Shown here: positions 1,251 to 44,415 of the stretch, one piece after another
Layout: each line of letters opens with the position of its first letter
How positions within the stretch are numbered: position 1 is the first letter of the stretch
From: Octopus sinensis
Taxonomy: Eukaryota
Direction: 5' to 3'
Assembly: GCF_006345805.1 (NCBI RefSeq)
Contig: NC_042998.1
Span: forward strand, 85,312,001 to 85,376,000
Length of the DNA stretch: 64,000 nt
The notes under the pieces: model-generated
Told to the model about the DNA's origin: nothing
What the model saw: only the letters and a program-made list of their open reading frames with translations
Databases searched by the model: none
Program-made: the position numbers and the translations under genes

Positions 1251-1840
1251 AATGAAAGAGTTAGAGAAAGAGATTAGCAAGCACCATTTTCCGCCTGTGC
1301 AAAAGAAATGTTGAAGCTACTATAATAATAAAATCTATAGGAGGATTTTTGTTTCAACAGTTTCTGAACTGGAGTGGTGTAGTGGTAGTGATGGGTGAAA
1401 TAACAGTATTGGTGATGCTGCTGATGGTGGTGGTGACGTAGGTGACAGTGATGGTGGTGGTGGTAGTAGTCATAGCTGTCTTGATGTTGATAAGATAAAG
1501 ATTAAAAGAAATATTGAAAGGAAAATTAATATTTAAAGAAAACAAAAAATGTCACAAGACCAAAAAGAAAGAAAAGCAAAGAAGAGATAAAAGTCTTCTT
1601 ACTCAATACTGGCTAGGAGATAGATTGATATAAAGAATGGAGGTAAAGGAAAATGAGACTGAAATGTTTACCACTCAAGCACAACAGGGATATATGAAGG
1701 GTAAACTATCCTCAATTAGGAAATGATACAAGCTTACAAACTTGGATCACCTGAAAATTGTTATTATTTTACAATGACAAAAATGCATAACTCTTTGCTT
1801 TTTTGTTTCATTTTCATTATTTTTTTTATATTTCTTACAC

Positions 1841-2225
1841 AAGGCGTAGGAGTGGCTGTGTGGTAAGTAGCTTGCTTATCAACCACATGGTTCTGGGTTC
1901 AGTCCCACTGCGTGGCACCTTGGGCAAGTGCCTTCTACTATAGCCTCGGGCCGACCGAAACCTTGTGAGTGGATTTGGTAGACGGAAACTGAAAGAAGCC
2001 CACTGTATATATGTGTGTGTGTGTGTGTATGTATTTGTCTCCCCAACATCGCTTGACAACCGATGCTGGTGTGTTTATGTTCCCGTAACTTAGCGGTTCA
2101 GCAAAAGAGACCGATAGAATAAGTACTAGGCTTACAAAGAACAAGTCCCGGGGTCGATTTGCTCGACTAAAAGGCAGTGCTCCAGCATGGCCACAGTCAA
2201 ATGACTGAAACAAGTAAAAGAGTAA
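1841..2225 (+). mobile_element. tRNA-derived SINE, family A (octopus OR-like), near full length
   Basis: A box TGGCTGTGTGG, B box GGTTCAGTCCC, CORE-like ACCTTGGGCAAGT, central TA/TG microsatellite, 3' tail GGCAGTGCTCCAGCATGGCCACAGTCAAATGACTGAAAC; many copies in the window. Confidence 0.9.
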
Positions 2226-2812: not shown

Positions 2813-4129
2813 GTAATAATATTGCTATTCATCTAAGGCACAAAAACATTTGATTTATAATGACAGGAGAATAAAGTTGTGTGGTGGTGTTGATGCCCTT
2901 TTCAAGAATATAATTTTTTAATATAAACACATTAGAAATTTGGAAGGAGTGGTATAATTGATTATATTGATCAGAGTATTTTATTTTACCAATCCCAGAA
3001 GGATGAAAGTTAACTGTGGCAGAATTTGAACTCAGGAACAGAGCAGGAACAAATACTGAAAAGCAATTTTATCTATTGCTGGAATGATTCTAAGAATTCA
3101 CAACACTTTCTCAAAGAAAGTAATTAGAAGAAATGGATTTCAAAAATGTGCTTTGTTTGTCCTATAGAACTAGGCAGAATATTTACTTCATTTAACTGGT
3201 GGCAAATTCAGCCTCAAAGCCTACCATCACATAACTTTAGAGGTCATCTGAATTTTCAAGGCATTTAGACTGAAAAAACAAGACTCACCTCCACTACCAT
3301 CCCCAAACAAAATGTTATTCCAAATCAGAGTTAATCCCAGTTGTCACTGGTATTCATTTTTAGATGAGCACACCAGAGTTAGCTGAAACAAAGTGCCTTG
3401 CTCAAGGACATAATGGGCCCATTGGTCCAAATATTGAACTCATGATCTAACAGTTGTAACCATATTCAACACCCTAACCATCAGGCTAAGTGCTTTAATA
3501 ACTAGATACAAGGCTACGGATAAATAGTGGGCGAGTACTTGACCTAGGTGACTATAATATTTATTTCATACTTATTATTTTATCAAGACAATAAGTGAAA
3601 TAAAGACAAAAAAAAAAAGAAACACCCACAAAATGTTTAATCCAGCACTTGACTATCTTGGCCATCTCCTGTACTCTTCAAGCTAAATTATAAATAACTT
3701 TCTTACATAGCAACAAGGTTCAAATTTACAAAGAAAAAAAAATAGAATGTTGTGACATTTTTATTATTAATTATTGATTTGAGCAGTTTCACACAGAATT
3801 TCACTGTACCAGCAGGTACACCTTACACAGCAAGTATTTTGGGAGAGGGAAATATGTTCAGTCTTACAAATTTTTACTGTGTGGTGGGATTTTATTTTAT
3901 TGTTATTCTTTTTGTAGTGAAATCTTTTATAGTTTAGAATGTTGGCTCACTTGCCAAAGTAGACATTGGAGCTTGGTGTAGTCCTCTGGCTTCTTGGTGC
4001 CTATCAATCTGTCCAACTCATGCCAGCATGGAAAACGGGCATTAAATGGTGATGATGATGATGAATGTGTCTGTCAAGTTGTGTGCCACAGAATCAAAAG
4101 AAACTATTATACAAATTGAATTGGGCCTC

Positions 4130-4553
4130 TTTTACTCTTTTACTTGTTCCAGTCATTTGACTGTGGCCATGCTGGAGTACCACCTTCAGTCAAGCAAATC
4201 AGCCCCAGGACTTATTCTTTGTAAGCCTAGTACTTATTCTATCAGTCTCTTTTGCCAAACCGCTAAGTTACGGGGACATAAACACACCAGCATCGGTTGC
4301 CAAACGATGTTGGGGTACAAACACAGACACAAACATACACACACACACACATATGTGTGTGTGTGTGTCTATACATACATACATACATACGACGGGCTTC
4401 TGCCAGTTTCTGTCTACCAAGTCCACTAATAAGGCTTTGGTCGACCTGAGGCTATAGTAGAAGACACTTGCCCAAGGTGCCACGCAGTGGGACTGAACCT
4501 GGAACCATGTGGTTCGTAAGCAAGCTACTTACCACACAGTCACTCCTATGCCT
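4130..4553 (-). mobile_element. tRNA-derived SINE, family A, near full length
   Basis: Reverse complement of 1841-2225. Confidence 0.9.
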
Positions 4554-17759: not shown

Positions 17760-18276
17760 CTAATTAAAATGCAAAAACAAAAACTACAAAAATTAATTAT
17801 ATATTTACCCCTATTCTAGATCAGAGTCTTATTTAATATCATGTTGTATTCAAAGTACTAGCTTGAATTCTAAGAACCTTTATTTCCAAACTGAGTAGTA
17901 TATTCTTGTCCACAAAACTACGAATACATTGATGGCTTTGTGAGTAGTATGCACACAATAGTCTTGAAGACAATTGAGGGTCACATGAATAATAATGTAG
18001 TTGTTAACAGCATCACCACTTTAGATCTACTTACTATGCTGATATGGATCGGATAGGTTATCAAAGTCATATTAAGTTCTTATTCAGAATTACTGCCCTC
18101 TTAGTTGAATCAGAAGATAAATAGTTTGTAGATTTCATTTTTGACATAGTTTCTATGGCTTGATGCTCTTTCTAACACCAAATACATTTAGAGAGTGTAG
18201 TAGGTGTATTTTATCATGGCACCAGCAATGGAGACGCTGTCATGTCCTCAATGCAACTCAAGAGTTCAACCATACA

Positions 18277-18329
18277 TTTATCTTTATCTAGTCACAGCTC
18301 ACGAGCTGCAGCCATGCTGGGGCACCGCC
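18277..18329 (-). mobile_element. SINE/LINE-type 3' tail fused downstream of the 5S copy
   Basis: GGCGGTGCCCCAGCATGGCTGCAGCTCGTGAGCTG..GATAAAGATAAA, homologous to the family A tail at 2172-2220. Confidence 0.85.
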
Positions 18330-18340
18330 ATTTAAAAGAG

Positions 18341-18459
18341 TGCTTACAGCACCTAGGTTTCCCAAGCGGTCACCTATCTAAGTACTAACTAGGCTCGATG
18401 TTGCTTAATTTCAGTGATCGGATGAGAACCGGTGCTTTCAACGTGATATGGCCGTAAGC
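18341..18459 (-). pseudogene. 5S rRNA: Full-length 5S rRNA copy (119 nt), probably a retroposed pseudogene or SINE3 head
   Basis: Minus strand GCTTACGGCCATATCACGTTGAAAGCACCGGTTCTCATCCGATC..GTTAGTACTTAGATAGGTGACCGCTTGGGAAACCTAGGTGCTGTAAGCA; helix I pairs; box C carries G>A changes. Confidence 0.93.
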
Positions 18460-19299
18460 CAGAAACATTGTTTCTGTTCAAACACCACCCATTTTACAGA
18501 GTGAACTGGGTACATTTGATTAGGACACCAACACCAGAGAGATTGCCTTGTCTCTGGAAAGACTACGTAGTCCTCTCTACATAGCCACCATTCTTTTCAA
18601 GTCAAACATAACTAAGACTAGTGGGGGGAGGGGTTACTAAGAGTGCAAAAAGAAGGGAGGATATGAACATGAATGTGATGAGAGAAACAGTAAAGAGACT
18701 GTAGAGGTCATAACAAAAGAAGACAGACAGTGTAGATATAAAATTTTTTAAATGTTGTTAGTAAAGATGAAGTTAATAACCAATCAAAATTACAATCCTA
18801 TTAGCAAAGAGCTCATCTCAGGCGTTTTTAGATATTTAAGATAATGTAGCTTCACAAAAGCATTTCTTATATCGCTCTAATCAGCTATTTCCTTAAGTCA
18901 AGCAAACAACAATGACAAAATTACAACTTGTACAACCAATTTTTAATTTACAATATATCTAAATACCACAATGAAAGCCAAAAATCCAGACCAGTAATAA
19001 TTAATGATGAGTAACCAAAAAGCCATTGCACTGTTGAATACTTAATCTTCATACTGTATATATAGGATGTGTCAGCTTAGCAAGGACCATCACGGCACCA
19101 TTGTTTTCTAAATACTACTCCGCCAGAGTTGAACTCTGTATTGTCAGCTAATAGAAAACTCATCAATTTACAATACTGCTGCAGTCTGATATGAGATTTG
19201 TTCCAAACCTATGGCATTTATTTATAGCTATGTGGAACTGGCCAGTATGAAGGTTTCTATGTATGTATGTTTACATGTGTATGATGTATGTGTGCGTGA

Positions 19300-33304: not shown

Positions 33305-34671
33305 CAATCTAAAATAGTTAATGGAAGCCAAATAGCATAAGCAACTCCATTTCAATGAAACTGGACAAAAAAAAAAGCATAATATTTCTGTGCATTGGAA
33401 GAATCATACAGATTGAAAGGATAAATAATGTATAAACTTTTGAATGAAGTGTTTCAGAGCTGGGTGTTCTTATCAATATCATCAGCTCCCCTTTCACATG
33501 AAAGTTGTACCTATTTTTTAAGCGCAGTGAATGAAGTAAATAATTATGAGCCTTTTATAAAGAATCAATATTTAGTGTTCAAAGATCTGTGTCTAAGAAC
33601 TGAAAGCAAGTAGCATAGAACATAGATTCCTGCAATTCTTTCATACTTCAAACTATGCCACACCTAAATAATATTCTTTTATGCTTGGGCAACAGCCATC
33701 AAGGGGTCTAGTTGATTATAACGACCACAATACTTTATCTAATTTATATTTCTATATAATGAATAACTAAGTCCTCCTCAACATTAAGGGATGCAAACAC
33801 ACTGATCATAATCATCATCATCTGTCTTCTATGCTGGCATGGGTTGGATGATATGACAAGAGTTGGTAAGCCAGAGAACCACGCTAACCTCTGTTGTCAG
33901 CTTTGACATGGCTTCTACGGCTGGATGCTCTTCTTAATGCCAACCACTTTACAGAGTGCACTGGGTGCTTTTTTATGTAGCACCAACACCAGTGGAGTTG
34001 CCAAAGGTATTTTTGGTTGACACACTATCAACAATCCCTTGCCAATACATCCCCCCCACTACACACAGCAGGCTTCTGTATAGTTTCCATCAACTAAATT
34101 TCAATATTTCAGTTATGAAGCATTGTTAACAATATAGTATAAAATACTTGCCTAAGCTACTGTATAAAGGAGTATGTAGTTATGAAGCTAACTTTTTAAC
34201 TACACTGATAAAACAATTATGTGTGTATGGGTGGGTTACCATATGAACACAAAGCTAATTGAATCTCAATAGTAAAAATCCTTCAAACATTACTACAAAG
34301 TTTAGAGATCTTAAATTTTATTGAGAAAAAAAAAAAGAAGACAAAAATGATAATTTATTTCCATAAAAACTTCAATTTCTACACTATTTATGACAGGAAA
34401 GAGCACCATTTAAATTCTAATAGATTTCTTCCAATCTCTTCACCACCACCTGCTCTCCATAATTTTGAATATTTACATGCCTCTATTAATTACTATTTGT
34501 AACATGACTTAATGACTAAGTTGACCAACATAAACCAGTTTTAGAAAACTCACTGGCAATGTCGTAAATTGTCATATTTAAAATTTTTGTTCTAATTAAA
34601 ATATAGCTGGAAAAATATGCTTTTCTTGTAAAATTTAGTACATTTCTCAAGAAATTGTTCCATTTACCATT

Positions 34672-35450
34672 TTCTTTTTTGTTTCAGTCATTTGACTGTG
34701 GCCATGCTGGAGCACCGTTTTAGTTGAACACATCAACCCCAGGACTTATTCTTTGTGAGCATAATACTTATTGCATTGGTCTCTTTTGCCAAACTGCCAA
34801 GTTACGGGGACATAAACATACCAACATCGATTGTCAAGTGATGGTAGTGGGGAGAAACACAGACACACAGCCTGCCATGTATTGGCTCTGTGGTAAGAAG
34901 CTTGCTTACGAATCACATAGTTCCGTGTTCAGTCCCACTGTGTGGCACCTTGTGCAAGTGTCTCCTACTATAGCCTCAGGCCGACCAAAGCCTTGTGAGT
35001 GGATTTGGTAGACGAAAACTGAAAGAAGCCCATCGTATATATGTATATATATATATACGTGTATATGTTTGTGTGTCTGTGTTTGTCTCCTCCAACATCG
35101 CATGACAACCGATGTTGGTGTGTTTACGTCTCCGTAACTTAGTGGTTCGGTAAAAGAGACCAATAGAATAAGTACTAGGCTTACAAAGAATAAGTCCTGG
35201 GTCGATTTGCTCGACTAAAGGTTGTGCTCCAGCATGGCCACAGTCAAATGACTGAAACAAGTAAAAGAATAAAAGAGAGGGAGTATATATATACACACTC
35301 ACACACATATATATATATATATATATACACGATAGGCTTTTTGCAGTTTGCGTCTACCAAATCCATTTACAAAGCTTGGGTTGGCCCGAGGCTATAGTAG
35401 AAGACACTTTCCCAAGGTGCCACGCAGTGGGACTGAACCTGTGCACCTAT
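34672..35450. mobile_element. Nested family A SINEs: plus copy (about 34870-35275) inside a minus copy
   Basis: Minus tail 34672-34870, plus copy, then minus head 35330-35450. Confidence 0.85.
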
Positions 35451-41985: not shown

Positions 41986-44084
41986 GACACACAATACATC
42001 CACACATTTTGAAGTTTCTCCAGCAGCAAATTTCATGAATAAGAAACACAGCCACTGGTTCTAGTTCATTTCTTTTTATTATTATTAGTTAATTGGATAT
42101 CAAGTTGACTAATAATGAAAGAGTGAAATAGAACCAGTGATTGCTTTTTATCAAAACGATCCTTCAAATTACACACACACACGCACAATTATTATCATCA
42201 GCATTATAATGTCTACTTTTCCATGTTTGCATGAATGAGACAAAAGGACACTGGACAGTTTTCAGTAGCCAGATGCCATTCCTGATGCCAACTCCAACCT
42301 GTTTCCTAGTGAGATAATAATTTTTTTCCAATCTATCAGACAACAGCCTGGATAAAAGCAGCAATTTCTGACACTGTCAGCCATCATTTACAACCAGCAA
42401 ACACATGTGAAGACAAGGGAAAATAAGGATGCATTCAAACACTTATATGCATACACACACACCCATACCTGAAAAGACCTTAAGCAAGGGCTCAAGTATT
42501 TCAGCTGATTATTCTTGAGCCAACTTGTGTGCTAGCTAAGGTTGTAAAGCAAACAAAGAGTTAATAAAAAGTGAGGGCCCAGTGGGATTTAAATCTAATC
42601 CCATCTCAACATTACCATAAAAAAACAAACAAGATTATCATATTAAACAAACCAATAAAATCTATTTTGTCATTTGACCTGTTCAATACAATTTCAACAT
42701 TTCCATTTGACAATCTCCCTACTATCATCATTAGGACAACTTCTTTGATCTATTCAATATAATAGAACAGCTCCCTATCAACTTAAAAAAGGAGGGAGGG
42801 AGAGAGAAAAGGTAGAGAAAGGAGAAATCACATGTTTAAATTTTAAATCTTGGGGCAACATTCTATAATGAAAACAGGAAGGTCATGACTGGAAATGTCA
42901 CGAATGATTGTATTCTTGTTTTGATGCATCATTTACCTCCAAGTCATAGCTTAAAGGTAGAGGATCAAACAGAGCTGACCCCCAAATCAAGTTGACATTA
43001 AAATACTTTGCATCAACAATGAGACATCAGGCATCATGATAGCGTATATTTACCACAATCTTGAATAGCACTGAGAGATCAGAAGACTTGACGGACAAAA
43101 GTAATATCATGCTATAAAAATCTCTAAGTAGTGTAAATTACCACAAAACTCCATGTATAATCTTTTTGTTGCATCCATTGGATTGTGGTCATGCTGTTGC
43201 ACTCCCGTGAAGGGTTTAATCAAACAAACTTCCCCCTTTATATATATTTTTTAAAAGTCTGACACTTATTCTATCAGTCTTTTTGCCAACTAAGTTAAAA
43301 GAATGTAAACAAACTAATACCTGTCATCAAGCAGTGTGGTGGTGGAGGTAAAACAGATACAAACACACACACGTGTGTGTGTGTGTGTGTGATTAACAGT
43401 TAATCACACGTGTGTGTGATTAACAGTTAACATCTGTTTTCTGTGCTTACATGGGATGGATGGTCTGATGAGAGCTGCCAGGGCCAGGAGCCACACCAGG
43501 TCCCATTGTTTTGTCATGGTTTCTACAGCTGGATGCTTTTCCTAATGCCAACCACTTTACAAAGTGGACTGGGGGCTTCTTATGTGATGCCAGTGTTTTT
43601 TGCACGGCACTATCACCAACAGGCTCACATAAGTACTTTGCAAGATAAAAAAAACCTTCAACTGAGAGTGAAGAATAGTATTGAGCAGGGTGTTGGCACT
43701 GTACTAGTTAGATTTAAAGGTATAGAGAATAGAGATAGATGTGTTACTGTCGAGTCGATACATGGATACCCCAGTTGGAAAACAAAGGTGGGCAAGACAC
43801 ATACAATAGGCTTCCACACAGTTTCTGTCTACTAAATTCACTCACAAGGTACTGGTTGGCCAAAGTGCTGTTCAGTGGGGCTGAACCCAAAATTACATGG
43901 TTACAGCACAATGTTTTTAACCACACATTCATACCTATATGTTTTTCAACAAAATAAAGATTAAAATTAGGGGTGCTTATAATGCATGGCACTGAGTTGC
44001 AAAGTTCACCCACATGCACAAACAAACTTACTGAAGAAAAACACAATACTGTAATAAAGCTTTATTAGCTTTAATTATATTTTC

Positions 44085-44415
44085 TTTTCTTGTTTTAGTC
44101 ATTTGACTGCAGCCATACTGGAGCACCACCTTTAGTCAAACAAATCAACCCCAGGATTTTTTCTTTTAATACTTACTCTATCGGTCTCTTTTGCCAAACC
44201 ACTAAGTTACAGGGATGTAAACACACCAACATTAGTTGTCAAGTAATGATGGGACAAACACAGACACACAAATACATATATATACGAAATCCACTCACAA
44301 GGCTTTGGTTGGCCCAAGGCCATAGTAGAAGACACTTGCCCAAAGTGCCACACAGTGGGACTGAACTTAGAACCATGCGGTTGGGAAGTAAGCTTCTTAC
44401 AACTCCTGCACCTAT
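44085..44415 (-). mobile_element. Family A SINE
   Basis: Similarity to 4130-4553. Confidence 0.85.

Follow-up and report, generated by a model that had tools for sequence, protein, structure and literature searches.

Positions 18277–18459 of the window, that is, of the whole 64,000-nt stretch of octopus DNA analysed here, were initially annotated as a 5S rRNA head on a SINE 3′ tail, either a candidate SINE3 family or a chimera of 5S and LINE tail. The question raised by this locus is whether head and tail are multiplied together as a family or were joined singly and, in the latter case, by which route. The window is part of contig C2 of a 2.7 Gb genome. The insertion proved to be longer than annotated, from 18276 to 18470, including 11 bases ahead of the 5S. 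Its parts are as follows.

18276–18470, minus strand: whole insertion, 195 nt, one event, without target-site duplication, as given by the empty site in organism E.
18460–18470, minus strand: 11 extra bases 5′ of the 5S, 6 of them an inverted copy of the adjoining flank 18471–18476.
18341–18459, minus strand: 5S rRNA copy, full length, 119 nt, with 4 changes (positions 37, 47, 51 and 85) with respect to the nearest gene variant.
18334–18340, minus strand: 7-nt pyrimidine stretch CTCTTTT, ending in T4 and taken to be a pre-5S trailer with its oligo(U) 3′ end.
18276–18333, minus strand: 3′ end of a CR1-type LINE, 58 bases, starting at the fixed short-tail position of the LINE family.
18310–18329, minus strand: tail hairpin 1; the tail starts 3–4 nt ahead of it.
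18295–18308, minus strand: tail hairpin 2, with a 5-bp stem and a 4-nt loop; the stem letters covary in pairs across tail families.
18277–18288, minus strand: terminal repeat, two GATAAA units.

The 5S was complete, as the initial annotation had stated, matching the full Rfam model RF00001 (model positions 1–120, 102.6 bits) over 18459–18341 of the minus strand, and it was the sole RNA found by Rfam in the window. Microsatellite noise accounted for the Rfam microRNA matches, which were below the cut-off, and no tRNA was found in the window by ARAGORN. The 4 changes were counted against the closest variant in the genome's own 5S gene cluster. Those at positions 51 and 85 fall in what we take to be boxes A and C, and the window copy is probably inert, in view of these two changes in the internal promoter boxes, the T4 run behind the 5S and the absence of the upstream block of the cluster genes. 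The stretch CTCTTTT had no exact match among the trailers of 5S genes, the best match being 5 of 7 letters, and it is assigned by analogy with trailers of this kind on genes of the cluster. The 11 bases at 18460–18470 are likely a patch that would have been added during repair.

The tail ends in GATAAA repeats (18288–18277), as described before, and it is of the same type as that of the SINE A copies, but not of the same family: 43 of 49 ungapped letters were identical to those of the LINE copy L069, and 31 and 29 of 49 to those of two SINE A copies in the window. The paired changes of the tail stem-loop between families were likewise found, whereas the stem of 6 bp with a loop of 2 nt originally drawn had to be replaced by a stem of 5 bp with a loop of 4 nt, which is the second of two hairpins. 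The fold of the window copy's own tail was within shuffles (z −0.87), and the folds of LINE and SINE A tails gave z values from −2.2 to −3.4 against shuffles. SINE A copies with a related tail variant are located in the window at 1840–2225 (plus strand), 4127–4553 (minus), 34883–35277 (plus), 44082–44403 (minus) and 34670–34870 (minus), two of them lying head to head near 34870–34885.

Contigs of four public DNA runs, of 24 listed, were aligned to window positions 17800–19000. In organism E, a related species with flanks a few percent divergent from those in the window, 18275 was joined directly to 18471, with 195 bases absent and no shared letters; the support consisted of one contig in each of two runs, from two studies, with 124 letters on the shorter side. 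Contigs from the runs of organisms A and D crossed from the flank into the element. Joints around 18095–18208 belong to another repeat and were left aside. The empty site implies that the 5S, the linker, the tail and the 11 extra 5′ bases arrived together, after the split from organism E and without target duplication (0 bp at this locus), and the case of two adjacent insertions, which the initial annotation had named against itself, is excluded here. Among 61 other copies of 5S plus tail, six sat as a single gap in another repeat, four of them cleanly. The shared flank stretch in 45 copies had a mean of 5.5, compared with 5.2 when shuffled, a value reached by 4 of 200 shuffles; since this excess is weak, duplications could not serve as proof of unit insertion, and it was the empty site that supplied it.

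The LINE sharing the tail, whose search had been recommended in the earlier description, was found. An exact 26-nt tail pattern gave 2826 matches genome-wide and none in its control. Among the first 70 tails listed, 21 extended more than 250 nt into the LINE, seven extended 36–194 nt, and 42 ended no more than 24 nt away from the pattern, one particular base being the most frequent end point. The LINE has an ORF2 frame of 1039–1040 amino acids with a reverse transcriptase domain (RVT_1, 9e-30), and endonuclease domains PF14529 and PF03372 were seen in close homologues of its protein; an ORF2 with APE-type endonuclease and reverse transcriptase is expected of the CR1 clade, as is the observed 3′ end with hairpin and short tandem repeat. 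Named relatives of the protein were found in argonaut (62% identical) and in stork (32–36%), the latter being presumably CR1. The label CR1-type given to the driver LINE is based on motifs, not on a reference tree. Three long copies were 97–98% alike and many of the 128 scored LINE matches lay in long open frames; the family is young and has intact frames. The last approximately 55 nt of the LINE form two hairpins, with paired substitutions in the stems from one tail family to another.

The start of the tail in the chimeras was practically constant. Exactly 3 or 4 LINE letters before hairpin 1 were found in 19 of 21 chimeras with the driver LINE's tail, one of the 21 probably having another tail variant, and solo tail copies were longer in 28 of 70 cases (Fisher p 0.0002 against the chimeras). 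The variable 5′ truncation of the LINE part expected of L1-type chimeras was not observed, as the 19 starts lay within one base. Chimeras of a second LINE family, whose tail is a different variant, began at this point as well (L445). This fixed start suggests a jump at a physical RNA end, as at SINE starts, which would be that of a discrete short tail RNA, cut or trimmed to the part protected by the enzyme; a stop of the enzyme would give the same fixed start.

Dispersed 5S copies were surveyed with an exact 23-nt pattern of the 5S end, which occurred at 130 places genome-wide; 100 were listed and 93 fetched, and the seven skipped were all 5S plus tail. Five sequences were cluster genes, two belonged to a small cluster and one duplicated another exactly; of the 85 dispersed 5S ends left, 82, among the places listed, had a partner within about 30 nt (72 recognised automatically and 10 by inspection). 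SINE A heads were the commonest partners, followed by short tails of several variants and by other SINE heads or internal parts. Three ends (L060, L101 and L131) were without recognised partner; in L060 a gene-like trailer was followed by coding-looking sequence, and this copy may be a capture on an mRNA or on another LINE. In all sets pooled, including those biased by the query, 117 of 121 distinct dispersed 5S ends had a partner. Reversed-pattern controls for the exact-pattern searches gave no matches, so the 5S/tail pattern is not due to chance. With two mismatches allowed, 820 5S ends were found genome-wide, about 120 of them cluster genes and, by extrapolation, the genome would contain several hundred 5S chimeras. 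Within SINE partners, internal join points recurred across different captured RNAs (L233, L235, L290 and L336; L035, L144 and L335), which suggests discrete shorter SINE RNAs.

Marks of the 5S precursor were found in the linkers. A match of at least 7 nt to a 5S gene trailer was present in 27 of 70 young linkers, compared with 5% of shuffled linkers, and in 6 of 47 linkers of older copies; some matches were long, such as one of 16 nt in L134. A T run of terminator length was retained in 43 of 117 linkers and 74 had fewer than four T's, and 23 contained at most one T after the first base, with eight A-runs, so that some joints show no oligo(U) end. Roughly one linker in four belonged to older trailer classes, which accompanied older 5S variants and several partners; genes with these trailers were not found in the 200 kb of the 5S cluster and four neighbouring 10 kb stretches, and we infer that such classes derive from former or other 5S genes.

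Other RNAs behaved in the same way. U6 gave 48 matches; once the clustered genes, three copies resembling genes and two duplicates were set aside, a partner was present in 18 of 20 dispersed copies; 7SL gave 25 matches, 10 of them gene-like, and a partner was found in all 15 remaining. A pattern running from tRNA T-loop to tail occurred at 75 places genome-wide (reversed control, 0). Among 41 of these fetched, 37 had a paired T-stem, 33 a T run and none CCA; all 37 trailers differed and many isotypes were represented. An intron-spanning pattern of tRNA-Leu(CAA) was found at 25 places, 16 gene-like and 9 dispersed; the dispersed copies contained the intron in 9, by construction of the pattern and hence giving no share of spliced copies, the 5′ leader in 6, and a CR1 tail or SINE head in 8. 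ARAGORN isotype calls are unreliable for intron-bearing or truncated tRNAs and Leu(CAA) was assigned by eye. In five copies (L459–L461, L464 and L481) a shared double deletion removes the anticodon and the partners differ, as if one defective gene had fed several captures. Tandem gene clusters were located at C1: 141.92–141.95 Mb (U6, variant sequence), C5: 117.01–117.04 Mb (7SL) and C15: 28.98–29.18 Mb (U1), and a cluster of intron-bearing tRNA-Leu(CAA) genes at C27: 6.913–6.922 Mb (L466–L480).

As a control, U1, which has no oligo(U) end, was searched, giving 42 matches, of which 15 were read from the first 30 and 11 from the last 12; CR1-type tails or SINE partners were found behind none of 12 dispersed segments. 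One U1 copy (L322) carried a short tail of another kind, and a further one (L356) ran into an old repeat. The short tail of L322, like that following a tRNA-Leu copy (L463), ends in ATT repeats and probably originated in another LINE; ATT repeats are also found at the end of several dispersed U1 copies. In the opposite direction, a small RNA was found ahead of none of 12 SINE A heads in unrelated loci, 5S, U6 or 7SL ahead of none of 70 sampled LINE tails, and a tRNA-like head on two of these 70. These background counts indicate that chimeras are a small share of retroposition events, yet nearly all dispersed copies of Pol III RNAs. The two degenerate tRNA-like heads on LINE tails (L416 and L422, on C1) may represent a small true SINE family or another Pol III RNA. 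In at least eight copies on C27, C28 and small contigs (L438–L445), a tRNA-like 3′ half, trailer and LINE tail had one junction and microsatellite flanks in common; this set looks amplified as DNA and not from a Pol III promoter.

Taken from sequence comparisons, the reading that we consider probable is that the 5S/LINE-tail element is one of many joints, each made singly, in which the LINE reverse transcriptase, having copied a short template up to its 5′ end, would jump to the oligo(U) terminus of a nascent Pol III transcript. Of the two options initially offered, the chimera formed by repeated template switching is favoured by the variable junctions, and the tail from a CR1-type LINE and the similar capture of U6, 7SL and pre-tRNAs go beyond it. 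Binding of the enzyme to the two hairpins of the tail, with priming at a nick in the genome, would come first, as judged by the tail held in common and by what is known of stringent LINEs. The template would then be a complete SINE RNA or just the last approximately 55 nt of the LINE RNA, both partner types and the single tail start being observed, and the enzyme would add a few untemplated A's able to pair with the UUU end of pre-5S, U6, 7SL or pre-tRNA. The captured RNA would be copied next, and copies often do reach its first base. Host repair would finally close the 5′ joint, with the observed absence or shortness of duplications and, sometimes, a patch. The products resemble new-born SINEs, mostly without further amplification.

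The joint in the window agrees with this sequence of steps: T4 is followed by the LINE's own AAAT, as expected if A's added to the cDNA paired with the UUU end of the precursor. The T4 run, for which readthrough or template switching was formerly deemed necessary, calls for no readthrough, being best read as a copy of the precursor's oligo(U) end. On the other hand, A or AT letters also occur ahead of solo SINE A copies, so the A's at the joints may be templated, which counts against the addition step. For the R2 enzyme in vitro, jumping is described as dependent on untemplated addition, mostly of A, with an overhang complementary to the end of the new template, and an overhang of three or more A's as unproductive (PMC8857657). 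The R2 enzyme likewise leaves one template at its 5′ end and resumes at the 3′ end of the next, helped by untemplated A's; it differs in belonging to another LINE clade and in having been studied in vitro, the authors suggesting that jumping may be unneeded in vivo (PMC8857657).

Genomic junctions alone cannot separate such a jump from prior ligation of the RNAs, in which a ligase such as RtcB would join the Pol III RNA to the tail or SINE RNA and the chimera would be retroposed whole. RtcB, as the tRNA splicing ligase, meets pre-tRNA, the fixed tail start could be a nuclease cut leaving a 5′-OH, and trimmed trailers of varying length do occur. Nascent Pol III ends are 3′-OH and SINE start sites are triphosphorylated, and SINE 5′ ends are nevertheless the commonest partners, a poor fit to the end chemistry of ligation; the captured pre-tRNAs, moreover, are unprocessed, with leader, intron and trailer. 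Ligation is the route shown for human U6/L1, where it needs a cyclic phosphate and a 5′-OH and is sharply reduced when U6 carries a 3′-OH or the partner a 5′ triphosphate (PMC6789731). For the octopus chimeras this route is considered unlikely.

Less likely still is a capture during repair, that is, a normal LINE or SINE insertion at which the host polymerase or the LINE enzyme patched the 5′ joint from a nascent RNA by pairing with its U-rich end. Flank-copied patches at the 5′ joints of the window copy and of L287, together with the absence of target duplications, are in line with it. Such patching should also strike the 40% of solo LINE copies truncated further upstream, yet LINE body was found behind none of 118 ends of 5S, U6 and 7SL, and the copies begin at the very 3′ end of the RNA and often reach its first base (49 of 117 5S heads begin at position 1). 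TATG was present directly ahead of 11 of the 49 full-length 5S heads, and many inserts of the CR1-type LINE system (L001–L030, L061–L090 and L398–L437) have TATG at the start or lie within (TA)n runs, which could reflect either a preferred target or bases that the enzyme adds.

The existence of one or several true SINE3 families, transcribed from the 5S promoter through the linker and multiplied from master copies with a hypervariable linker, is very improbable. The window element does have the 5S head with internal promoter region and the 3′ tail of a partner LINE, whose body lies upstream of the tail in other copies, both of which define SINE3. All 40 best DNA matches span head and tail, which suggested a single family, although these were selected by the query and their linkers differ. 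Sampling by exact patterns, in the direction of the genome-wide junction check originally proposed, gave, instead of the uniform head-to-tail structure of master genes, 110 distinct combinations of linker and partner in 117, few recurring and up to three times, with the same 5S heads on many different partners. In a tree of 73 5S heads the partner label needed 29 changes, compared with 30.6 when shuffled, so partners do not cluster, with the low power of 119 columns; a pair of heads with the same partner (L362 and L367) had a support of 98. Readthrough would be possible in the linkers with fewer than four T's. The linkers copy the trailers of different genes, however, and three other RNA classes behave alike. 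The 2826 exact tail matches make the chimeras a minority by-product of abundant tail copies, which is Kojima's 2015 criterion against a SINE (PMC4494074). A 2026 repeat annotation of O. vulgaris lists "5S", "U" and "U-L1" SINE entries, uncommented there (PMC13282606); its single "5S" SINE family (Table 1) would speak for SINE3, but averages 6 kb per insertion, a better fit to arrays (PMC13282606).

The 5S gene cluster was located at C4: 131.78–131.98 Mb (L181–L200), the two strands of these 200 kb carrying 121 gene ends with 31 different stretches up to the first T4; its genes share an AT-rich upstream block, which chimeras lose. A small second 5S cluster lies near C4: 135.79 Mb (L098). The divergence of head and partner was correlated (rho 0.39, p 0.006, n=49), more so with SINE A partners (rho 0.60, p 0.001, n=26), and without significance when the partner was a tail only (rho 0.26, p 0.33, n=16) or SINE B (n=7). 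Sequential insertion, with 5S landing ahead of a pre-existing partner or tails and SINEs aimed at Pol III terminators, is hardly credible in spite of the GGCG-like start that partners have in common, given the empty site lacking both parts, the absence of a tail or SINE head behind all 121 cluster 5S genes and of any partner behind the U6, 7SL and tRNA-Leu cluster genes inspected, the lack of gene flanks in dispersed copies, and the correlated ages of head and partner.

The element, having a sense small RNA as 5′ part and a LINE or SINE as 3′ part, both inserted in one event, and with copies formed independently and few junctions repeated, is filed with the U6/L2, U6/Mon-1 and U6/L1 chimeras as a variant. 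The platypus U6/L2 and U6/Mon-1 and the anole U6/L2, U6/RTE and U6/AnolisSINE2 chimeras (Doucet et al. 2015, PMC4476161) are alike in joining a sense small RNA to a short 3′ end of a stringent LINE or to a SINE, in their small or absent target duplications and in that nearly all dispersed copies are chimeric; template switching was proposed for them and the oligo(U) end named as a possible reason. As duplications of 1–9 bp are given for 72.5% of platypus L2 chimeras (PMC4476161), a target duplication around the whole element is regarded as an L1-type feature. The survey in platypus and lizard, as described there, covered only U6, with 40 and 16 copies, mostly 5′-truncated in platypus, and one unresolved case of a CR1 chimera is mentioned in turkey (PMC4476161). 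In the octopus, by contrast, the LINE is CR1-type, four RNA classes are involved, the captured RNAs are precursors with trailers and often full length, SINE partners are joined at their 5′ start and the tail has one fixed start.

Mammalian U6/L1, 5S/L1 and tRNA/L1 chimeras are similarly independent and non-propagating, those of U6 being sense, full length and with a T run at the joint, and differ in a variably truncated L1 part and duplications of 6–19 bp; in human 5S/L1 and tRNA/L1, which are attributed to twin priming, most copies are antisense and truncated (PMC11838501, PMC6789731), whereas the octopus 5S and tRNA copies are sense and keep the precursor 3′ end. SINE3 families (zebrafish SINE3-1, AmnSINE1, OS-SINE1 and HaSE3) also have a 5S head on a LINE tail, those of vertebrates using CR1-clade LINEs, with a template switch to 5S proposed for their birth, and differ in a uniform structure derived from master genes and, usually, a body (PMC4494074, PMC7245038, PMC4824008, PMC10886601). 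In the octopus the body is absent, hardly any junction recurs and the 5S part is unmodified gene sequence plus trailer. No report of such chimeras in any invertebrate, or of SINE3 in cephalopods, was found in a literature search that included few subscription papers and was conducted outside Repbase, Dfam and SINEBase. New here are the invertebrate host, the CR1-type driver, the four RNA classes, the clear precursor marks, the sense full-length 5S and tRNA copies and the fixed tail.

The origin of SINEs by placing a head on a tail has long been ascribed to template switching and seen almost only in finished families, and in the octopus intermediates are numerous for all three head types (tRNA, 5S and 7SL). 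The trailers, leaders and introns and the absence of CCA place the capture in the nucleus, on unprocessed RNA. The youth and intact frames of the driver LINE make jump and ligation testable against each other in vitro. The set of chimeras also bears on why few newborns amplify, as the upstream block is lost and a terminator-length T run stands in many linkers. In annotation, automatic pipelines may label these copies as a SINE3 family or as extra 5S, U6, 7SL or tRNA genes.

More tentatively, and with somewhat less than even confidence, it is proposed that an octopod CR1 family would shed a self-retroposing RNA of approximately 55 nt with two hairpins, from which, or from a SINE, the reverse transcriptase would routinely jump to any nascent Pol III transcript. 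If this reading of a tail RNA is true, the genome would be a standing nursery of SINE1, SINE2 and SINE3 precursors, with hundreds of snapshots of tail gain, and would hold a fossil record of past 5S gene trailers.
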